64,000 bases of DNA from Octopus vulgaris (Eukaryota). Shown one piece after another: positions 1 to 56,042 of this stretch (the first letter of the stretch is position 1; every line of letters starts with the position of its first letter). The notes under the pieces were generated by a model that saw only the letters and a program-made list of their open reading frames with translations, was not told the DNA's origin and did not search any database. The stretch is from positions 1,364,001 through 1,428,000 of the forward strand of contig OX597835.1 in assembly GCA_951406725.2 (NCBI GenBank), in the 5' to 3' direction. The position numbers and the translations under genes were made by a program.

Positions 1-450
1 GTAAATACAACCAACGAAAGGTGCTACCTGAACAGTGAGATTTTGGAGGAGTGTGTCGTGAGACCAGACATAGTTTTCTTCATATGGTGCCATGTTGGGA
101 CTGTGACACACTTGAGGAATGCATACATCAATTGGTTCTCACAGGAACCACTATTTTCAGTGACTTGTGGTGGGCCTACTCTCACATTCCTGAAATTGAT
201 GGTTATAAGTTTTGACACAGAACAATGAACCACAGAGCTGGGTTTGTTAACTTGAAAGGTGGTACCCATATGCAACAAGTGGAAAGCACATTGATGGATC
301 TGTGTAAAATGAGGGAAATGTAAATGAGGAAATGACACTGTACACCCCACCATTCCATGGTTAACTTGTATCTCTATGAGATTATGTGGTGCGAGAGATA
401 CGAAAATTCTAATTTGTTTGACAAACTCCTAGAGTGTGACTCAAACTTTC
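1..450 (+). mobile_element. Decayed Merlin (IS1016/ISXO2-like DDE) transposase fragment, truncated by the window start
   Basis: Plus-strand translation across stops and frameshifts gives KYNQRKVLPEQ*DFGGVCRET...GTTIFSDLWWAY...NHRAGFV...GGTHMQQVES...YLYEIMW, matching Merlin motifs KYNRGR/WVFGG/TIxSDxWxAY/VNH/HTQxVES/YLxEFMW. Confidence 0.75.
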
Positions 451-1730
451 GATTTTGGATTTTTGTTACAAAAAATGAATTGTTTACATGAACTGAGCAA
501 CAGTTTGCTTTTTATGTGTAATTTTTTTGGAAAAAACCCCCAAAAAACCATTTCCTTGAGGATTTTACTTTGTATATTGCTTACATGCCTGTTCCAACAT
601 TTCACATGGCTTTATTCATTAAAACTTCCATGGTCATGATGTTTTGTCTAATGTTGTCATAGACAGTTATCATGCACAAAATGCCAGCTTCCAAATCCTG
701 TATTTTGATTGAGTAAAAATAATAGAACTAAACCTCTGTAGCATTTTACTAAAATTTCTCTGGAACAAGTGGATAACAAAATCAGATTCAGTGTGAAAAA
801 TGTACATTAATATACCAAATTAGAAAATTTTCACTTGATTTTAAGATTTCAAAAGCTGTGAGTGAAACAAAAATGATCCTTTCCATTTGTAAATTTAAAT
901 ACACTTCTACCTCTCACATTTTATAGATATGCTATTCATACAGGCATTTGAAGACAGACATCTTTTGAAGATGGTCTCACAAAACAAACAAACTGTTTGG
1001 TAATTTCTGTAAAATTAAATTTTTTTTTTCAGCTCACACAAACCTATACATACACAAAAATGTATACATGCAGATAAAGATATACATAAACATAAGCGAT
1101 TTGTGAAAACATAAAACATGTATGTGTGAGGGTGTGTTTCATTGTTCAAATCACTGGTGGACACAAAAGAAGAGTATGCGACTGTTTTTCACTGTTCAGT
1201 TACAGTTTTGGCACATCTGTCTCCCAAGGATCGCCTCTGAATTTAGGTGCTTGGTTACAAATTAATGGGGAAGGTATATAGCTGACTTAAATCAACTGCA
1301 GCACAGTACTTGTACTTTTTACCAATCTCAGAAGAATAAAGCAAATACTTGTATTTGCTTTGTTCCTCTGAGATCAATATTTTCTAGTTGGGATTTGAAC
1401 TCAATATAAAAGTACATATCTGAATTCTGCACAATGTTTTGGCTTTATGATTGAAAGAAAGGGTGGGGCGAGGGAGAAAGTATGGCGTGGCAGCAATGCC
1501 TTTGCCAAAGTCATTTGCAGTGAAAAAGAAGTCAAATAGTTTTAACTGCACACTGAAACCGCATAACGGTCTTGGCACAAACCCAAGTTTGAAAAAAGAG
1601 AGATAAGAGTACAAGAGAAGGACTTGAAATATAAAAATAGAAATTCTTACAATACAGGTGACAACTGAGGTTTCAAATGACAGGAATTCAAAAATAACAA
1701 AAGTTATATAGGGGATTATTCTATAATAAA

Positions 1731-2026
1731 AGGATTCTCAAACATTCTTAATCTATGGACCCCTTTAAGTTATTATTTTATTCTGGTGGACCCTCATAAT
1801 AATTCAACTAGATTTATAGAAACATCTTTCAAAATTCCTTTTTTTCCATTCACGAACTTGTGTAGGTTAAAACTATGTAAAATGTTTGAGAAAGAAACCT
1901 TGCTGTTTCTTGCAATACGTACCAATACCTACGTCTAAAGCAACATTTTTCATGGACCTTTTTAAAGTACTATTGTGGATTCCCAATTTAGTATGTTGTT
2001 GCATGGACCCTGGTCAAGAACCAATG
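1731..2026. mobile_element. hAT-type MITE (same family as 30415-30720, opposite orientation)
   Basis: Internal ATCTATGGACCCCTTT...TTTTATTCTGGTGGAC is the reverse complement of 30657-30696; degenerate GG(A/T)TTCTCAA...AAGAACCAATG ends. Confidence 0.6.
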
Positions 2027-2203
2027 GATAATGCATAGAAAAAGCATAGGACTGAAAGAAAAACCAGAATTTTAATTAATGAATAATAATAAAACGATCA
2101 TATGAAAAAACGTGGGCTGCCACACGGTCTCTGTTTCGATGCTTTCGAGTTAAAACAAAAGATCACCAAAACATGTATACTCTTTCCTTTCATATCCATT
2201 TTG

Positions 2204-3504
2204 GGTATTACTTAAGAAGAGTGGACCTGACGCACACACCCACGCCAGTCAGTGGATGCGCACACCGGTCAGACATGCGCCAGTCAGTACCTGCAATTAA
2301 AAAAATGAAACCCCTTCACATGTATAAATATGTGTAAACTGTAAATCGGAGGGGAGGGGGAATTTATCTAATAAAACAAATAACCAACTGAATGAATGAA
2401 AATAAAACAAATTTTGAAATTGAAATAAAATGTTACTCAAAAGCAGACATTAAGAAAAGTGAGAATAAAAGTGAATCATTCTGAAAGATGTTTTAGAATG
2501 TTCCGAAAACCTTCATCTCCAGTCTTCCCACATTTTTCTCCTCCAAAGAAACTCGTCTCAACGGGATTCTATCATACTCTTGAATCTGCTTTTCGCATTT
2601 TCCCAGTAACATTCAACAGAATTGGTCTGCACAGCAGTTCCTGGATCCACAAAGTTTTCTCCATGGTTCACTTTGAAATGGGAATATCGTGGTTCAACAT
2701 CTATTTCGACTATTCCATTGTATCCACACCAACAATCAGAATTGATAATCGCTCCTGATTTTATATTCTTTCTGATAAGGGGGGAGGGGGGAGCAGAGTT
2801 TCGGAGGAACAACCATTCACAAACCCCAGAAGTCCTATTTTGTCGTCTTCTCCGTCCCATCCTCCCAAAACCCACCTCTCCTCTGGTATTCTACCTCTAT
2901 TATACTTTCTTTTGCACATAAAAGATTCGTCCATTTCGACGATGTGCCCAACTCCTCCAACTTGGTAGGGATTACATACAAGATGGTGACTCCCTATGGC
3001 TCCCATGTATTGATAACATCATCACTATTGATTCTCAAAGGCCTGTCATATCACATGAGATATTTATGGAAACTTTTCTGGACCATAAATTCAAGTGTAG
3101 GATGGAAGTACACACAAATAGGATTGAATCCCATCTAGACGAGTTTCTCTGGAGGGGAAAACTGGAGATGGATGTTTTTGGAACATTCCAAAACATCTTT
3201 CAGAATGGTTCACTTTTGAATAACGACTACTTTTAAGTAAATAACATTTTATTTCATTATTTTCACTTTTCTTTCTTAATGACTACTTTTGAGTAAGATT
3301 TTATTTTAATTTCAAAATTTTCTTTACTTCCATTCATTCAGTCTGTCGATTGCTTGTTTCGATAGATACATCCACCCCATCCCCTCTAATTTACAGTTTA
3401 CACATATTTATACATGTGGAGGGTTTTTTTTTTATTGCGGGTGCTGACTAGTCTACTGACAGGTGCGGGTGCGCGCGAAGGGGCCACTCTTCTTAAATAG
3501 TACC
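2204..3504 (-). mobile_element. Merlin DNA transposon remnant with ~370-bp inverted arms and 8-bp TSD
   Basis: Minus-strand IVEMDESFMCKRKYNRGR...WVLGG...IINSDCWCGY...VNHGENFVDP...QTNSVECYW. Termini GGTATTACTTAAGAAGAGTGG / CCACTCTTCTTAAATAGTACC. Flanks CCATTTTG (2196-2203) and CCATTTTT (3505-3512). Confidence 0.85.
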
Positions 3505-4722
3505 CCATTTTTCACCCAGAGAGAGAAAAAAAAACTTAGAAATCTTAGGCACATAAACTCTCTTTCTGCCATTATAGAAGCCTCCAGAGAACAGAAAGCA
3601 AAAATCTGAACATTTTAACGTTAAAGAATTCGATTTTTTAAAAGATAAATATAGAAGTGTGCCCCCATCCACCCCACGAGACTTTGCTTTCCCATAACTT
3701 TCATTAAAAATACTTGATTTTGAATCAAATTTTCTTTACAGAGGATATATATGGTATAAACGAATCTTGAGTCTGAACCGATAAAAATCTACGCGAATCT
3801 AACGAATTAAAAATGTATCGTAAGTTATGTGAAGGTGAACATTATTTTAATATATATTATTTCAATCTATTTGTGAATAGAAAAAAAAATTATGAAAGAT
3901 GGAAAAGGTAACAAAATTCTATAAATAAAATCTGGGAAAAATTAAACTAGAATTAAAACCGATGGAAAAGTGAAAATAGCTTCGACGTTCAGAACCTGAA
4001 ATATTAATCATCAAATTAGGAAAAAATGTTTAATCAACTGAAAACGGTATCGGCTTAAATTCTCGTGGAGACAGAAGGAATAATTAAGGGATCGATGCTA
4101 AAATTTTATATTTAAACTTTGTCAACATTTCTATTGAAGGAAAAAGAGTGGAAGCCAAGAAGATTCCTCAACAAGCGTCAAGAGCAGAATTGGGAAAATG
4201 CTTCAATGTTAATCGGTGGGAAATGTTTCTGGTGGTTTCCTCATGGAAGGGAAAAGGGTCAATCTGAAATAAATATTCCTCTTATGGCAGATCAATAAAA
4301 ATTTACATAATAAACTTATTCGGGTTTTGTTTGATGAATCTTCGTGTAAAACATTTTTAAAAACATTTTTCTATGCTTTAATTATCATCGTTTGACTTGA
4401 TTGAGTTCCCTGGAAGTGTTTAATCATCTTTGATAATTATTTTCTTACGATTACTCAGAAAATATCGAAATGATCAAGAGGGAAATATTATTAAGCGAGA
4501 ATGGCAATTATTACATTAAATAATCGATAGAAGCTGCGAGAGACAAATTATCTTCTTCTTATTTTCTCTCTTTTTAGTTCCTCCTTTTTATCTTGAAATA
4601 AAACGGGAAAAAATATTACATATTTACAAAGCAGTAAGCAATTACTGCATTCGAAAGACTCAAGTGTAATCAAAACTGGAGATAAGGATGGTTTTGCTGT
4701 GTTGGAAATTGTCTGAACCTAC

Positions 4723-4785
4723 CACAAAATCTGCCTTCGGGATTCCGCTGTGGTTCTGCTCTTCGTCCGCCTTGTCGGCCGCCAT
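4723..4785 (-). CDS. VBP1: Prefoldin subunit 3 / VHL-binding protein 1, first coding exon; later exons not found, presumably left of the window
   Basis: Minus strand ATG GCG GCC GAC AAG...GAT TTT GTG|GTAGGT = MAADKADEEQNHSGIPKADFV, then a phase-0 donor. Resembles the human VBP1 N-terminus MAA...HLGIPEAVFV|EDV. Too short for the ORF track. Confidence 0.8.
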
Positions 4786-4827
4786 GCTTCTTTGCTCAGA
4801 TCTCGCGAGATTCTCTCGAGAAACAAT
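4786..4827. promoter_or_regulatory. 42-bp interval between the divergent VBP1 and CUL5 start codons; probable bidirectional core promoter
   Basis: Contains the 12-bp palindrome ATCTCGCGAGAT (4800-4811; the TCTCGCGAGA motif is bound by BANP/ZBTB33 in vertebrate CpG-island promoters) and TCTCGAGA (4814-4821). The surroundings are CpG-enriched and transposon-poor. Confidence 0.7.
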
Positions 4828-4842
4828 ATGGCGATGTTAAAG
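4828..4842 (+). CDS. CUL5: CUL5 exon 1 (MAMLK)
   Basis: AATATGGCGATGTTAAAG|GTGAGT; strong phase-0 donor that fits exon 2; analogous to human MATSNLLK. Confidence 0.85.
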
Positions 4843-7800
4843 GTGAGTCCAATGATCTTCGCCTCTTCCACATTCTTGTCGGACATTTTACCTGTTTATT
4901 CCTTTCAATTCCTGCCCTATTTCTCTCTGCCAATCGCGATGCTTAATTCTGTTTTTATCTAGCTATTTTTAATTTAAATTTTATCTTAAAACTGCCTTAA
5001 AACTCGGTGCTTTCAACTTTGGGTCCCGACTTGCTTTCAATATTCCTTCCAAACAATCCACGTTTGACTCGCTTCGTCTCAATCCTTCCACCTTAACAAC
5101 CATGTGCATTATATTGACTTGTCGTCCTTATTATACACTTACTCTTATAATATAAACCCTATTTCATCTCTAATCTACCGTTTTATCCCAGCACAGTTCG
5201 AGCTTTTCAAGCCATTTCGCTGAAAACTGCTCCCAAATAATTTCTTCCCAAATATTTTTCTTCCTAAAAACTAAAAATGACTTCAGTTTTTCTTTTTGTT
5301 TTTTGCTTTCTTCTCTTTAATTTACAGACTTTATTTTCATTATATAAAATTACACACTTGAATGTTCGTGGGGAAAAAAAAAAAGAAAATATCAATATTA
5401 GAAAGAATCGAACGATCGTTTTTCCCCCAATCTCTTTTGTTTATCTTTTTATACCTTTTGCTGATCCTTTGTGCAGACGTAAATATTACCTCTCGATTTT
5501 GAAATATTTACATAAGTCTCTCACATGTCTTCACTTGTGGCTGTTATAATGGTTGGTTCTTGTAGTCACCTTGTCATTTTCGAGGTCTTATATATATACA
5601 TATTTATATATATATTAACCTCAAAGTTGCATTTCCATCTTCGTGTTATATATATATACATATATATATATCAGTCGAGGTAGTACAGCTGCTATTTTCC
5701 ATTTTTAATCATATATTTGACTAGAAATGACAATCATAAACTTGTTATATACTTTGTAGCAGATTTAGTAAAACACTTTTTATTTTCCAACTAAAATGTA
5801 ATTTGGTCCAAAATTATCAAATTCGACCTCACTTCTCAATTTAAAGACTTAGTTACACACTTTATTAGAGTAAATAGTATTCCTTCTTAATTATGAAATG
5901 AAACATTTGCCGTTTCTATTCACGGTTTATGTCTTATTTCGAAGCGCTTTTATATTATTTACGGTTTAGGCCATAGTTTGTACAATTGCCAATTCTCACA
6001 AAGAGGGAAATAAATTGGAACTGCTTACATTCCGTTAAAATTCTCTCACCTTCCGCACCACTCGACACAGTTCGAACTAAGATTAAAGGAGATATTTTGT
6101 TTTTATAAGATAAAAATATTAAAAGAAAAAAAAAATGCAAATTTTTAGTAAATGTTCTTTTAATGGCACATTTTATTAATTACTTGATATCGATTATTTC
6201 CGATTAGTGTTTCCCCTACAGGGAAACCGATAATACTTACGAGTGATCTATTGTCTTAATTGGCTGGAGACATTTAATTGAAGTTGTAACAGAAAATAAA
6301 ACTAAGACTGTTGCATTGAGAAAAGGTTGGAAAATAAAACCAAATTTAACCGCCCAGATTTCACTCCAGACAAACAACATTATTTAATCCTTCTATAAAA
6401 TCTTGACCATTATAAAATAAAATATTCGATGATTTAACATTAAATAAACATTTCTCGCTTTTTCATTTCCGTACTTATGAAACAAGATAGTTCTTTTTTT
6501 ATTTATTTCCTTAAACAATATTATCTGGACGATTAGAAAGAAGCAAATTCTTCTCAGTGCCAACTTGATGTATGCAGGAATTTCTAGTGTTGTCAAAGAC
6601 AGAGTATAATTGACTGGTCTTCTCTTGTTACGGTGGCATATATAAAGTTTACATTTGTACTGTTACAAGAACAAAATAATTTATATAAGAAAATATTCAT
6701 TTCACAAGTTTAATTCCTATTTTATCCACACCTGAAACCTGAAACCTTTCAGCAATTCTCACTCTCTGATTTCGATCTTCCTGTCCTGCTTGGTCAGACC
6801 TTCACATTTATTTTTTCTTTTAACTAAAGGTTGTTCTTTGCATTTTTCTTGTTGTATGCATTTAGATTAATAAAACAGTTACTGTTTCTTGAATTCCTAT
6901 TTATTAGTGTGCAAATATAAAATGAACTCTAGTTTTTGGACATCGTTTAACAGGCAGTAACTACACTTGTATCACATGACTAATGGTGTAAAGGATTAGG
7001 GATCGTTTAGAGAAGCTATATATATATATATATATTATAATAATAATCGTCATCGTTCAACGTCAGTTTTCCATGCTTGAATAGGTCAGACGGAATTTGT
7101 TGAGACTGATTTACTACAGCCAAGTTCCCTTCCTCTCGCCAACTTTCGCCCTTTCCATGTAAGGTAAAATTTTCCCATGACCAGACATATTTTCGTAGAA
7201 GATTGGAGACGAAGGATACCAGTTTCATACAATTATCACACGAAGTCAAAGCAAGCAGACAGTAATACAAACAAACACACACCTATTTATATGACAGGCT
7301 TCTTCCAGTTTCTCTCCACCAAATTCACAAGGCTTTGGGTATCCTGGGCCTATAATAGAAAACGCTTGCTCAAGGTGTGGTTGGGAAGCAAGACTTGTTA
7401 TCACACAGGCATGTCTCTGCCTTGATATGTAATGTTTGGCATTCGGAAACTGTATGGCAAGTGTGACACGAAATGATATTGAAAATAGCCATGTAGTGTG
7501 CGTCTTGTCTTTCCGAGTTATTTATTAATGTTCCTATATTTCCTTTTCTTAAGATCTTCTCTGACTCACCGTGGAAAGTTCCATCCCTCATTCATTTCGG
7601 TTTCTCCAGTTTGGCTTACGGTTTTGCTCTTGGCACTGATTTATTGCAGATATTTCTTAAATTCAACGAAGTTTTAACTCTGATATTTAATGCAGATAAG
7701 CAAGGACCCTTATTAAGGTTAATGATTGATTTTTGCAGGTATGGCTGAGTGGTAAGAAGCTTGCTTCCTAATCACATGGTCCCAGGTTCGGTCGTAGTAC

Positions 7801-13800: not shown

Positions 13801-15849
13801 GTTAATTGTTTCATCAAAACAAATCTTGGGCAGAATATTATTACAATATTTTTTGGGTTCAGCAGGGGATAACTTTCTTAAAAGTAGTTGCACTTTTTTC
13901 TCGTCAGTCCAATTGCTAGTCTTCTGTGAAGATTTCTTCATATGTTGGAAAATATGCAGAGAAAGTAATAACTTCTTTTGGATTATAAACAAATCCTCCA
14001 GTTGAGTTTGCTATGGCATCTGGCATGAACAACTCTGAAGTACTTTCAGACTTCTTCAACATTAATTCCAGCAACTGTTGCTGTTGTTAATGCAGTTGCA
14101 ACAGTGACTGCACCACACCGGCCAATGTTAACATATTTTTTCTTTGGTTTCCTACCAAAATATTCGACTGTCCAACACAAGCTTCGAATATCTCATCGCA
14201 GCTTTTATATCCTTAGTTGCAGAGATAGGATTTTAACGAAGCGGGGGTAAAGCAAGGTATTCACAGACGTAGCTTACAACTACCAGCATGTGAGACACCA
14301 ACGCCTTCTTCCCATCTCAACGAGACACGTTACTCTTTATAAGGGTTCAACAAGTCCACCTTTTAACCACACAAGGGTGTTAATATCTATCACTACAACA
14401 GTTCTACACCAGGTTGTTAGACTTGCAATGCTTAAGTGAAATATTAAAACGCAAAATTACATATATATTTTTAAAGTAATTAACTTACACTAAAAGTTGA
14501 TTAATTTCCAGTTATCTAATGACATAGATATATTTGTAATAAACCACATTTCCATTTCAGCAAGGGCAATCGCAATTTGAAGAAAAATGGCCTACTATGC
14601 GCCCAACAGTTCTGAAACTTTTACGCCAAGAAAGGGTGACAAAATTTGAATGGCAAGAATTGTTTTGGTAAGTTTTATTTTTTTCTGCATCATTTTATTA
14701 TAATATACCCATAATTACAGGCCTAAGTTGAGAAACTTACTTTCCAACCGTGTGGGTATGGGTTCTGTCCCACTGATTAGAAACTAGGGCAAGTGGATTT
14801 GGTAGATAGAAACTAAAAGATAATTGTGTTTGTGTGTGTGTGTGTGTATGGAGCGAAATGAAAATAACACTGGCATCTCATTTTAACAGATATATTACCA
14901 AAATTACAAAAAAATATCTTGAAATACTAAAGAGTAAATTTATTCAATAAAATCGGCATTGGCTTCAACCATGGCCTCCAGACGACTTCAGAATCTCCTG
15001 CAACTCTTCATCTTTGGTGTTACAAGCAATTTTGTTGGTCTCTTGCTCAACTGCACCCCAAACATAATAATCAAGGGGGTTGCAGTGTAGGGAGTTAGAT
15101 GGCCAGATGTTAGGGGTGATGTGGTTGCAGAGATTGTCTGACAGCCATGACTGGGTTCTGCTTGTATGGCATGGTGCAGAGTCCTGTAGCCAGGCATAGG
15201 ATGTTCCAGCATCCACCCTCTTGACCCAGGGCAGCACTACCTCCTCCAGGCACTTCATGTAGGCTTCTGTGTTGAGTTTGGGACTGTGTGAGAAGATGAA
15301 TGTAGGCATCATGTTACCATCACTAGTGATCACTCCAACACCATGATATGGACTGGATGTTTGATTTTTATCACTCTCGGTTCATGTTTTGTGAACACGG
15401 CAAGCCAACAGCTGTTCTGTGTGTTCACCATCTGATCCTGGCAGAAAGTTTTCTTGTTTGATAAAAACCAAAGCATGTTCAGTTGGAGGGGATGCTTGAG
15501 TTAGTTCAAAGCTTCGTAGCGTGGTCTTTCCTCTTGTCCTTGATGATTTGGGATAAAAAGTGGCCCTTTCTCATCTTGTATGAGGAATACTGAATGTCTT
15601 CATGCACCACCTGCCTGATAAGACACTCAGACACTCCCATGTCCCTGCCACTAGACCTGATTGGAGGGATTGTTTCTCAATCATGGCCTGAATCTCACCA
15701 ACCAATTCAGTGTGAGTTTTCCAAGCTGCTTTACCTTCGTAATCACCATTAGACTCATACAACTCTTTCTAAATCTTCTACACTATCCTCTGGTTGACAC
15801 CCAAACATTCTGAAATGTTCGTATTGGAGCTTCTGTGGGTATATGTGTG

Positions 15850-49813: not shown

Positions 49814-51299
49814 CATTTGGTAAAACTCCAGTTCAGGAGTTTGGGGAAGCATGGAATCACCCCTTCATTACCATTACTCCCAGGTCTATTCTGAGCTGGC
49901 ACAATAGTATCTGCCAGGATCCCATCAATGGGTTGAACCGATTTCCCAAGAGTAGAGGAAGCTCCTGTTATTCTTGACAAAGCCACAGGGAAGGCAGCTC
50001 TTGGAGGCAAAAGATACTATGGCAAAACTTGCAGTCAAAATAGTACCCGGTATCCTGCAATGCTTGTTAGTGCGATCTAATATGGCAATCAAGAAAGTGG
50101 CAAAAGCATTGTATAAGCTTTTGTCACTTAAACCCAATAATGTCCCAATGTCTCACTATCATTTAATTTGTTGGTTGAATGTGAGATAGTTCTCATCTGG
50201 CAAAAATGAGGCTGTCATCATGTATACATGTGTGTACCCTTGTCTTGATGAAGGTACACACATGAAGGTCGTAAATGAGCAGCAAGGTCGTTCAAGCGAT
50301 GTTATTTATTCTAGTCTTTTGTGAAAAACATGTCTGGCCAAGGGGAAATATTAATTTCCTTGGAGATAGGTGAAGGTTGATGACTGGAAGGGCATCTGGT
50401 CATAGAAAATCTGCCTCATAAATTCAGTGTGGTCCATGAAAGTAAAGAAATATAGACATTAAACAACGATGATGATAAGAATCGTTCAGTTCTCTAATCA
50501 ATTTATCATATTTTTACAGCTAAGATAGAATTACTGTTATCAGTTAGGTGCCTTCTTTTGCAATGCTGATGTTTGGTAAGCAATATATAGGTATGACTAT
50601 GTGCTAAGAGGTTTGCGTTTCAGCCACACATTTCTGGGTTCAGTAGAATTGCATGGTACCTTGTGCAAGTGTCTTCTGTTATTGCTCTCTGCCAACTAAA
50701 GCCTTCTGGCCATGGGGAAATATCACCTTGCATGGATACAAATGAAGGTTGACGATAGGAAGGGCATCCACCTGTAGGAAATCTACCTCAAAATCTGTCT
50801 GGCCCATGCAAGTATGGAAAAATGGACGTTAAATAATGATGATAGTAATAAACACTCACTAAAAATGGTCACTGGTAGGTTAGAGATTGTATGCATTACT
50901 GGTATAATAATTGGGTGGGAAACATAAAAGATTTCTAGTGATGTATCCTTTAAAAGAAGGTAAAAACCAGTATTTCAGGTGAGTCTTTAGCAAAATAAAG
51001 TTAGTCTCCATTTCTCTACGTACCAAAATCCAATGGCTACCTGTGACTTAACTTAAATTCTACCATAGTTCCAAAATATTGAATTTCGTTGACTTATTAC
51101 TAGACCAATTTTTGCCGTTTTTGTAATATATACAAAGGTGAATTAACTGATCCGTGATATGCCACTGGTATATCAATAACGATTCTGATGAAAGGCGCCT
51201 TAAATCAGTCTTCTTGCTAAAGAGAATTTATGAATTTTATTTTAACTTGGCAATGAGCATCTTTTGTTCCGTCTCTCACCTCCACCATCTCTCTGTTCC

Positions 51300-51969
51300 C
51301 TCTTGTTTCTGTGATGGAAGAGGATAGCGCACTTAAATCGAGTCTTTCGATATTAATGTTCTATTAGAACTTGGGATGTTTTCCTTTCGACAATAAACGG
51401 ACGGGCGGTTAAAAAAAACAAAACAACAACCCTAAGTGCTTCTGACAGAATTTGAACTCAGAAGCATTTCGTCCAGCGTTCATTGCGGTTTTGACATTAT
51501 TTTCCTTTTTCTGTATTTTCTCAAATTCATCATTTATTTTTCAGAAATCTATTGTCGATGTTATGCGCCAGCCGAAGACCATATTTCACTTTTCTTAATA
51601 TGAATTTAGATAATTAAGAGAAACCTCTGTTACGAATTAACATTATAAGTTCAATGAAACTAGAATGGATTCGATTGTTCCTAATTAATAATTTACTATT
51701 TTGTTTTCTTTACATATATTTAATACAGTTTATTAGCCACGGTCAAACGAGAGAAAGGAGTTTCACTGATAACAAAGTCTGTTTATTGTGTTAAAAACCC
51801 CGCCATGTAACGCTTAATTAAACGTCGTTTTTTTCACCAACAAAAATAACGGACGACCGAGAACCGACGACGATTCTCCGTTTGAATTTCACTTCATTTT
51901 GCAAACTTCCCAGCGAAACGCTGGAATGGAATAAATTTGGCCAACGCCGTCACCTTTACTGCACACGGG

Positions 51970-52002
<33 letters not shown>

Positions 52003-55000
52003 ATTTATAAACGTATGTGTGTGTGTGATTAATAAGAGTTTCGATATTTTCTTTAATGTTTGACAAGGATTTGAAAGTCAATTTGTGGTGAAATAATATT
52101 GTTGCATTTTAACAGCACCACGCTGGCTAATTATTAAACAGGTAATTACAATTACTAGAACTGAAAGCCGAGTGGTAGAATGTGTCAATAAGTTAGTTCG
52201 TAAATAAAGTTTGTTAGTCATGACTAATATGCTGATGTTTTTCCGTTTCTACATTTATTTAAATACTAAACCATTCCTATTCACGGGTTATAATGTCCTA
52301 GTCTTTCACCAAATATTTACAACCGGTTCACTGCTATCTTACAATATACTAAGCTTGAGAGAAGAACATTCTGACACATTATTTTATTATAAAGGAATCT
52401 GTTGTGTTGTTTGTTTTAGTTGAGATTTCTTTGTTTGGTTTCAACCCCCAAGTTTCCCGCCGATTTAAAAGCAGCGGGCTGCAGTGAATGAAAGCAACAT
52501 CTCTGAGAGATTAAAATACAAATTCTATGATATTTATATTTAACGGATGTAGTGGAAAATTTTATGGCAAAAATTTTTTCTGAATATCTTAAACATGCTT
52601 TCGATAAAGAAAATTGAAAAGGTAAATTTTCGAGAATGCTGACTTTATTTTCCCAAAATATCAACCAATGAAGCATGAGAGGAAAATTTCGTAGAAGCAA
52701 TATATGATGGCGGCGAGCTCGTTTGTTTGAGGTTAAGCTGTTACAATTGTCACATAAATTCAGGTCAGTCCGAACCACCTTGTTGTTGGAATCGTAAATA
52801 TTCAATGTTTGTGTCGCCCCGTTTGCAAGGAGTCGCAATATATCTGTGACGGTGACTCCTCGACTGCGGTTATTTGTTTTAATTGTTGTGGTTTCTCTCT
52901 TATTTTTCCTCTCTCCAATGTCTTCGTAGCACCGCACACACACACACACACACACAGATAGACACACACTCACGCATACTCACACACATACATACAGACA
53001 CACACACACACACTGAATAGAGAATGAAATGAAGTCTTGTGGATAGAGAAAGCTTTGGAAGTGGAACGAGAGAGAAAGAGATGGTGATTGTGGCACCAAC
53101 GCAAGGACAACAGGGTTTGTCTTTATACATTTTCAAATTCCCTGCCATTCCGGCCGCCAAGTCTTTCCGTTACACTCCTCGATGCTTTCACATCTTTAAA
53201 TCTCCATGATCTGGGCCATCTTCCATTAATCTATTTCTCTCTTAAATATTTATTTTCACACCATTTCGCTTTCCTTTTTCCTTCTCTTTTTACATTTATT
53301 TACCTTTCAAATCTTCCAATCAACCTCATGCTCTCTCATTTTAACCCAACAACACATTCGTTTCTCTCTTATTTTTTGCGTTTTACTTACGTCTTTCACT
53401 TTATTTATAAATTTGAATCCAATATTTACTGGTCAGGATTAGATTTAGACATTACACACACAGATCTTATTTATATATATAGATGTATATACTTTATATA
53501 CATACAATACAGATGTATATACTTTATATACATACAATACAGATGTATATACTTTATATACATACAATATAGATGTATATACTTTATATATGTATATATA
53601 GATTGCATAAATATAGTTTGTATTTATAGATTATTTATATATAAAGGCATCAGTCACTTAAATCTGTGTTGTGTACAAAATATATCGATTTTAGATGAAT
53701 TGTTTTGAAATGGTAATAACAATTTCTGTGAGCTTCATGCTTTCGCAGCATTTTGTGGCAATTAACTGATTTCACGAATACAAACTTTTTGTTTATTTAC
53801 GTTGATTTTTTAAAAAATCATAATATTTTTGCGAAATTCAAATTTTTACCCTAATTCTAAAAATGTTTTTAATTTCCAAGGTTTCTTCCTTGTGTTAGGG
53901 TTTTTCTTTTACGAGAAATAACTTTTGCCAAACTGTTGTGATCGATCGAAGTTCAGCCTGTGGCTGTTTCCCCATTATTTCTGTTCGAAATCAAAGCAAA
54001 CAGTCTCTGTGGCCGTTTCCTTTTCGTAAATACAAGTCGTGTGTGCTTGGCTTGGATGAGGCTGGTCAACAGCTTCAGGCGAGCATCCATCCATCCACCA
54101 GTGTGTGTGATGCCAGAGAAAAGCCCTCTCTCTCTCCCACAAACGGCCTCACTGGTGGTGGTGGCTCGTTTGCTGTTTATTATTCTTGCCAGCTCCAAGT
54201 AGTAGTAGCAGCAGCAGCAGCACGGCCGAAACACAACAAACCAATCTTACGACTACTACCTGATTTGGGGGAAAGAGATGGTGGTGTGTGAGCGCCGCCG
54301 CCGCCGCCTCCTCCGCTACAGTCGTCGCCGTCGTCTCTGGCACTATTTACTGAAAGAGGAACAGATTGGCCAACCAATACGACATTCTCCACATACGTGT
54401 GCGCCTGACACAGACAAGGGTACATTTTCAACGTGCAACGTTGCTTTTTCTTCCGCTTTTAAAGGCTGAATGCCAATGCAAGGGCATTTAGGAATGTGTT
54501 CTTTGAGCGGCAAAGGGTTAACGAGGAAATGTATAGGAATTAGTGATTTTCATGCCTTCATCAAAAGGTTTTGCGGGACTCGGTGCAGCGTTATATTTAT
54601 ATAAACTGATGCTGTTATCTATCTATCCTTACATCCACGTAGAATATCTTTCAAACCTATCGCTGCCAGCACTCTCACCTGTTGTAGTTGTGTAACAACT
54701 AAACGATTGCGAAAATATAATCTTGAAAACCGTTTTTTTGCCTTGTCAAATGCTTTTATGAGGACCATTTTTCTGGAATGTGAAATGTTTCATTTGAAGT
54801 GAGAGTGAACCTTTCCTATGACTGAGGAAGTGTTTTTCTCTTTTTCAATTAATGATTGCCCTGGCTTCCACTTTCCCTTACGTAGACAATTTCTTTTTTT
54901 AATGTCAAGTGTTTAATTGTTAATTTTTATATTTGTTAACAATGGCAGGTCGGAAGTCTTAATTAGATTCGTATTATTTCTCCATTGAAGCCATTTCATT

Positions 55001-55450
55001 AGATTTTCGCTCGCATTTCGAGTGGAGGGTAAATCTCGATTTTGAAGTGACGCTTTTTTGGCGCCGTCTTCGCTCGCGCTTCCATTACGGCGACTGCAGC
55101 CACGATTGTTGCTTCCAACTTTCCCATAATACTAGAAAAGCAATTGTAGTAAATATAAACGAATATGCAGATAAGATCACAGCCTTAATAACAAGTATCC
55201 TGTCATTAAGAATCTAATGGCTTGGCTAACTTCCCACTTTCAATATCCTGCAACGGCGCAGGATATTGTTTACTCATTCAATCTCGTGTAGTTTCCAAAG
55301 TTTCCAAGACATTTGAAGTACAAAAGGCACTAATGTCAGTGAGGAAAAATTACGTGTATATATATATATATATATATATAAGTATGAATGTGTGGCGGAG
55401 GTAAAGAATAAGTACACCACTCGTTTTCGTCGAAAAAGGGTGGGGCGCGT
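51300..55450. promoter_or_regulatory. CpG-enriched, transposon-poor region; probable promoter/5' end of an unidentified gene
   Basis: Many CpGs, (GCC)n at ~54294-54307, ATTGGCCAACCAAT at ~54365-54378, YY1-like ATGGCGGC at ~52707 and CCGCCAT at ~51800, ETS-like CGGAAGT at ~54951. No recognisable coding exon. Confidence 0.5.
53481..53590. repeat. 30-bp minisatellite, ~3.7 copies
   Basis: Unit AGATGTATATACTTTATATACATACAATAC. Confidence 0.95.
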
Positions 55451-56042
55451 ATGCATGTGTGTGTATATATACGTACATATATGTATGTAAATATGTATAT
55501 GCACATATATATATCTATGTATATATATATATATATACATAGATATATGCATATGTATGCACACATGCATATGTATATGTATATACATACTACACTCACG
55601 GAGTGGTTGGACTACACTCACGGAGTGGTTGGCGTTAGGAAGGGCATCCAGCCGTAGAAACACTGCCAGATTTGACTGGGCCTGATGAAGCCTTCTGGCT
55701 TCACAGACCCCAGTAGAACCGTCCAACCCATGCTAGCATGGAAAACGGACGCTAAACGATGATGATGATGATGATACATATATAATATATATATATATAT
55801 ACATACATAGATATATGTATATATATATATATATATGTGCATATGTATATACATATATATATATGCATTATGCATGGCATGTAAAAAGCACCCACTACAC
55901 TCTCGGAGTGGTTGGCGTTAGGAAGGGCAACCAGCTGTAGAAACACTGCCAGATTAGATTGGAGCCTGGTGCAGCCTCCTGGCTTCCCAGACCCCAGTCA
56001 AACCGTCCAACCCGTGCTAGCACGAACACGGACGTTAAATGA

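Follow-up and report, generated by a model that had tools for sequence, protein, structure and literature searches.

The window analysed here (64 kb of Octopus vulgaris DNA, contig OX597835.1) contains the 5' ends of two divergent genes, VBP1 (prefoldin-3, PFDN3) and CUL5, whose start codons are separated by 42 nt. The VBP1 ATG lies on the minus strand (4785-4783) and opens a coding exon of 21 codons (4723-4785), followed by a GTAGGT donor in phase 0; the CUL5 ATG lies on the plus strand (4828) and opens the coding exon MAMLK (4828-4842), followed by a GTGAGT donor at 4843. Both starts had been described in an initial annotation of this DNA, whose coordinates and translations proved to be exact.

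Gene structure at the divergent starts

The identities assigned to the two genes and to their first exons were confirmed by protein comparison. VBP1 exon 1 is identical to the N-terminus of octopus prefoldin-3 (P0395 and P0397); this exon alone gave no match in PDB, Pfam or the protein database, owing to the shortness of the query. VBP1 intron 1 extends beyond the left end of the window, and exon 2 lies outside it. The read evidence consists of unstranded contigs from four runs (X2, X3, X6 and X7), presumed to be RNA. Contigs from three of these runs (X2, X3 and X6, belonging to three studies) are spliced at 4723, and past the donor they read EDVENFMKNT (hand translation), i.e. residues 22-31 of P0395, indicating that VBP1 is spliced from 4723 into PFDN3 exon 2 as the initial annotation had anticipated. 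The exon 2 letters agree with a record common to O. vulgaris and O. sinensis. The X2 contig is continuous from this splice through the spacer between the genes to position 5072; the X3 contig ends at 4782 (adapter), and the X6 contig ends at 4767 in a chimeric jump, where the sequence returns from exon 2 to exon 1 through a short word common to both (hand translation), which corresponds either to a template switch or to a back-splice. The contigs of X3, X6 and X7 have no coverage of the spacer, and these gaps were counted neither for nor against. VBP1 intron 1 also harbours a fragment of an ISXO2/IS1595-type transposase (2561-2890, minus strand; PF12762, E 4.8e-6), part of which (2578-2664) appears as an alternative first exon in the O. 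vulgaris gene model P0396, probably a prediction artefact.

The complete CUL5 gene occupies positions 4828-39558 of the plus strand: the octopus protein P0123 is covered from residue 4 to residue 778 by tblastn pieces (residues 4-778), and exon 2 (QGQSQFEEKW..., 14561-14667) follows an intron 1 of 9,718 nt. The junction between exons 1 and 2 rests on protein records and not on reads: MAMLKQGQSQ is found in the CUL5 proteins of Octopus, Argonauta and Sinanodonta and in two proteins (P0005 and P0125) whose source Logan contigs are no longer than 3.6-3.7 kb, and the N-terminus reads MAMLKQQGQSQ in Ostrea and Argopecten. These records back MAMLK as the first exon, and there was no sign of a different one; none of the four runs contained a spliced CUL5 contig in 4400-5200, which was counted neither for nor against. 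In an alignment of 11 animal N-termini, the second methionine of CUL5 (4834) is invariant and the first is not.

The CGCG/BANP motif and the CpG landscape of the spacer

The spacer between the two start codons (4786-4827) is likely the core of a shared bidirectional promoter. It contains a 12-bp palindrome, ATCTCGCGAGAT (4800-4811), which holds the exact CGCG/BANP consensus TCTCGCGAGA (consensus from PMC6192621) at 4801-4810, with a 10/10 match and an intact CGCG core, as the initial annotation had recognised. The palindrome is centred 20.5 nt from the A of the VBP1 ATG and 22.5 nt from the A of the CUL5 ATG, and the edges of the element are 15 and 17 nt from the two ATGs. A second copy, TCTCTCGAGA (4812-4821), lies 11 bp from the first, includes TCTCGAGA at 4814 and has one mismatch to TCTCGCGAGA; this CTCG variant was inactive in a human reporter (PMC6192621). 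These are the only two 10-mers in the 64 kb within one mismatch of TCTCGCGAGA, and there is only one exact copy.

For a 42-nt stretch, an order-2 model of the window predicts the exact motif 2.6e-6 times, and a model of the local CpG-rich region predicts it 2.7e-5 times. When the spacer was dinucleotide-shuffled 20,000 times, the motif arose in 151 of the shuffles. Some palindrome of at least 12 bp arose in 1,151 of these 20,000 shuffles, and the window contains 27 perfect palindromes of at least 12 bp besides microsatellites (496 including TA-type repeats). Palindromy itself is therefore unremarkable; the signal is the identity with a known motif, together with its position.

The shared start is surrounded by a CpG-retaining zone (3400-6500), with an observed/expected ratio of 1.05 versus 0.28 in the CUL5 body. 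Unmethylated starts combined with methylated bodies have been reported for many expressed octopus genes (PMC9476566), and the CpG contrast at VBP1/CUL5, as far as base composition can tell, fits this pattern. In a second CpG-retaining zone (51000-55500), several 500-nt bins reach observed/expected ratios of 0.9-1.75; it contains GCC runs together with a CCAAT box near 54290-54380 and is probably another promoter.

The CGCG element is bound by BANP in mammals and zebrafish (bioRxiv 10.1101/2021.11.03.467208, PMC10206803, PMC8887127, and Grand et al. 2021 as cited there). In human cells the element is sufficient for two-way transcription; starts lie 20-70 nt from it (28 and 51 nt in the reporter), some of them downstream of the ATG, and the divergent starts of POLR1C/YIPF3 flank one element at a distance of 30 nt from each other (PMC6192621). 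The argument of the initial annotation that 42 nt are too short for two promoters was thus overstated. Like the POLR1C/YIPF3 promoter, the octopus spacer has the exact consensus between divergent housekeeping genes, tens of bases apart and within a CpG-retaining region. The promoters of this type have been described in vertebrates, whereas the octopus case comes from a mollusc and from AT-rich DNA (30-37% GC), and its ATGs come within 15 and 17 nt of the element compared to 20-70 nt for the human transcription starts. Octopus starts placed ahead of both first ATGs would consequently be nearer to the element than the human range, and the vertebrate geometry would not be transferable as it is. 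By this analogy, VBP1/CUL5 resembles a CGCG/BANP promoter and is a candidate member of the class. No report of a CGCG/BANP element in an invertebrate promoter was found in the literature searched.

Leaders and start-codon contexts

With starts at the candidate pyrimidine-purine steps of the spacer, the CUL5 leader would measure 3-34 nt and the VBP1 leader 8-39 nt. Both ATGs lie in TISU/YY1-like contexts: compared to the 12-nt consensus SAASATGGCGGC (PMC3177215), the VBP1 context (4778-4789, minus strand) has two mismatches and the CUL5 context (4824-4835, plus strand) has three. These scores are equalled by 14 (two mismatches or fewer) and 48 (three or fewer) of the 2,799 ATGs of the window, a background made of all window ATGs and not of true octopus starts, with ATGGC partly reflecting Met-Ala. 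Each context is also one mismatch away, by eye, from the YY1 pattern VAAVATGGC (supplement of PMC6292497). TISU supports initiation 5 nt from the cap, and the median leader of TISU genes is 12 nt (PMC3177215). The octopus pair resembles these genes in its TISU-like contexts (both with an A at -3 and a G at +4), its basic functions and the little room for a leader; it differs from them in that neither context is perfect, and the function of TISU was shown in mammalian cells (PMC3177215). When four candidate leaders were folded, the z-scores ranged from -0.56 to 0.98, ruling out a structured RNA element in the leaders.

The initial annotation had considered that the two mRNAs are either almost leaderless or overlap at their 5' ends, perhaps into each other's first exon. 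Of these options, short leaders are the likelier one, and the possibilities for overlap differ between the genes. A CUL5 transcript beginning before 4784 would include an out-of-frame ATG at 4784 (context GCCATGC), which opens an upstream ORF of 18 codons over the CUL5 start (4784-4840, plus strand); productive CUL5 transcripts reaching into VBP1 exon 1 are therefore disfavoured. The minus strand is free of ATGs from 4786 to 4872, and a VBP1 leader could span CUL5 exon 1 without meeting one; VBP1 starts beyond 4873 or 4886 would gain out-of-frame ATGs.

An asymmetric arrangement has to be weighed here, in which VBP1 starts within the first intron of CUL5 or over its first exon and CUL5 starts in the spacer, with the 5' ends overlapping in sense/antisense and the motif lying inside the VBP1 leader. 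The ATG-free stretch agrees with it, as do the CpG-retaining zone, which reaches well into CUL5 intron 1, and the X2 contig, which links spliced VBP1 to position 5072. However, the contigs are unstranded and one spanning two genes is no proof of a single transcript; moreover, low-depth intron contigs on both sides (X3, X6 and X7) indicate that pre-mRNA or DNA is present in the samples. The X2 contig fits a long VBP1 leader and also pre-mRNA or DNA. Considering also the out-of-frame ATGs that the longer VBP1 leaders would acquire, we regard this arrangement as unlikely.

The annelid-like CUL5 mRNA contig L001 has 21 nt in front of its ATG. Upstream of an out-of-frame ATGGC, 9 of 13 positions there agree with the octopus leader (p 0.0024 taken alone, but the best of 17 loci over five offsets). 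This is only suggestive of ATGGC having been kept as a DNA element in its own right, irrespective of whether it serves as a start codon. GCAGA precedes the true ATG in two annelid-like CUL5 mRNA contigs (L001:1-30 and L003:1-14), and in L001 it makes up part of the out-of-frame ATGGC.

Age of the pairing and the proposed shared promoter

A CUL5 profile search of metagenome contigs gave 80 loci. In nine of them, all termite-like, PFDN3 exon 1 lies immediately ahead of CUL5 exon 1, encoded on the other strand. These nine reduce to about six different sequences from a single clade; three carry all five PFDN3 coding exons (Pfam PF02996). The proteins that the nine loci match best cluster with those of Coptotermes and Periplaneta (tree without support values). 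The termite-like start codons are 249-278 nt apart versus 42 nt in octopus, in both cases head to head and at less than 1 kb. The other 71 loci showed no PFDN3 match, most of them ending too near CUL5 to tell; L013, L031 and L044 have no PFDN3 in 10 kb upstream of CUL5. Pfam searches covering 73 of the 153 ORFs upstream of CUL5, plus two window ORFs, found other divergent neighbours of CUL5: an ASK-type MAP3K kinase in L013 and Rtf2 in the annelid-like L035. The loss of the pairing in some lineages (L013, L035, L031, L044) is real. Loci lacking PFDN3 (L013, L035, L044, L011) often carry another divergent gene just upstream of CUL5; besides the two above, these were a methyltransferase domain in L044 and an LRR fragment in L011.

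CUL5 and PFDN3 bear consecutive identifiers (accessions or locus tags) in nine of 15 spiralian species (three Octopus, Argonauta, Nucella, Pomacea, Littorina, Solemya and Capitella), identifiers two apart in Owenia, and identifiers 419-5,588 apart in the other five (Mercenaria, Lineus, Mactra, Dreissena and Tubulanus); consecutive identifiers say nothing on orientation or distance, and distant ones are no proof of separation. In several molluscs the identifiers are consistent with the synteny that the initial annotation had proposed as a check, those of Mercenaria, Mactra and Dreissena being the exceptions. The two genes are on contigs of equal size in all 13 species common to both protein lists, most of which are whole chromosomes and mean linkage only; the small scaffolds are those of Capitella (478 kb) and Nucella (836 kb). 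In snails, a clam and worms, VBP1 and CUL5 seem to lie next to each other, and a pairing shared by molluscs, annelids and insects would date to the protostome ancestor. This deep conservation is new here, having been absent from the initial annotation. The CUL5 proteins of Mercenaria, Mya, Mactra and Dreissena (P0007, P0013, P0017 and P0018) begin at the second methionine, and in three of these species the PFDN3 identifier is far from that of CUL5; the bivalve-like L037 has no PFDN3 exon in 665 nt upstream of CUL5. The loss of the first two CUL5 codons may go with the loss of the PFDN3 pairing.

Old housekeeping pairs arranged head to head form a large class that is already known, and the pair alone is therefore a modest addition. 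For amphioxus, the proportion of neighbouring genes with a common bidirectional promoter is given as 25%; 372 of its bidirectional promoters are putatively ancestral, and most of the ancestral ones were lost in vertebrates (PMC6292497). VBP1 and CUL5 are like the ancestral microsyntenic 5'-5' pairs (PMC3514665, PMC6292497) in being unrelated housekeeping neighbours, at less than 1 kb, across phyla and lost in some lineages; from genomic comparison alone, they would belong with them by their conserved pairing and by their head-to-head position within 1 kb, their start-to-start distance of 42 nt being at the extreme. The pair was not found in the literature searched, including the covered parts of the main text of PMC3514665 and of the supplements of PMC6292497; the supplementary pair list of PMC3514665 may contain it, and amphioxus identifiers could hide it.

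The initial annotation had proposed that the arrangement couples a chaperone subunit to a ubiquitin-ligase scaffold through ElonginBC. Prefoldin would help to fold the ElonginBC-type adaptors of CUL5 ligases, and the two genes would have to be co-dosed. VBP1 and CUL5 are on different human chromosomes, which counts against this explanation, as do the status of PFDN3 as one of six prefoldin subunits, the existence of other divergent neighbours of CUL5 (the ASK-type kinase of L013, the Rtf2 of L035) and the distant identifiers in five of 15 species. The long persistence of the neighbourhood is in its favour, and pVHL, which partners with Elongin C, is stabilised by prefoldin (PMC7660911), with Vbp1 also present in one table row of a SOCS2-depletion proteome (PMC5316984). 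However, the pVHL ligase uses CUL2, and CUL5 is unmentioned in the available text of PMC7660911; the ElonginBC link is thus unsupported, and we consider the functional coupling very improbable.

CGCG is absent from the nine termite-like PFDN3-CUL5 spacers, and at orthologous promoters the element was found only as variants with two mismatches (L042 and L055/L058/L059), those of the annelid-like L055/L058/L059 lying upstream of CUL5 and being lost in their relatives L049 and L065. A strict pattern combining the motif and CUL5 exon 1 had no matches in metagenome contigs, where cephalopod DNA may be absent. The promoter could accordingly be shared without the palindrome driving it: the latter would be a recent or neutral CpG-rich word, and YY1-like sites at the ATGs or first-exon sequences would set the starts. 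The termite-like pairing, persisting without the motif, points in this direction, together with the chance appearance of the motif in the spacer shuffles (151 of 20,000), an element-to-ATG distance shorter than the vertebrate element-to-start distances, and the naming of YY1, NRF and ETS as motifs of annelid promoters (PMC11292947). Against it stands a 10/10 match that is centred, unique in 64 kb and expected at only 2.6e-6 to 2.7e-5 per 42 nt, which makes a bystander role of the palindrome improbable in our judgement. Exact copies of TCTCGCGAGA were seen in two other loci: at 9043-9052 of L031 (an unplaced animal), about 960 nt upstream of the CUL5 match, and twice at 1756-1809 of the annelid-like L057, downstream of CUL5 exon 2, where they are possibly part of a repeat.

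The spacing of 42 nt at the motif, and the same pair head to head or neighbouring elsewhere, make a single very compact and very old shared promoter likely. On balance, we favour an old head-to-head housekeeping pair whose members share one TATA-less two-way promoter centred on TCTCGCGAGA, both leaders being very short. A BANP-type activator would bind the unmethylated palindrome and keep one nucleosome-free patch open, and polymerase would start on both strands at pyrimidine-purine steps in the spacer or at its edges, giving leaders of 3-39 nt. Each allele would fire in one direction at a time, since both initiation complexes would cover the same DNA. The TISU/YY1-like contexts would let ribosomes start near the cap, with an in-frame fallback start at the third codon of CUL5, and the promoter would have been compressed in octopus. 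Linkage would likely be kept because each core promoter lies within the other gene's first exon and a break or an insertion would harm both, an upkeep that would need no joint function of the two proteins.

A bolder form of this proposal, which we advance tentatively and hold to be rather doubtful, is that a bidirectional promoter older than the split of molluscs and insects has been squeezed to its physical minimum in octopus: one CGCG/BANP site, two near-leaderless TISU-initiated mRNAs, and polymerase footprints overlapping less than 20 nt from the site. If true, the CGCG-plus-TISU grammar of housekeeping genes described in vertebrates would be bilaterian-wide, and the 42-mer would represent, for molluscs, a two-way promoter of minimal size and natural origin. 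With its 42 bases, the locus is a natural test case for whether the CGCG/BANP element works outside vertebrates and for how short a piece of DNA can serve two divergent polymerase II starts together with two translation starts, and it may provide a compact two-way promoter for cephalopod transgenics.
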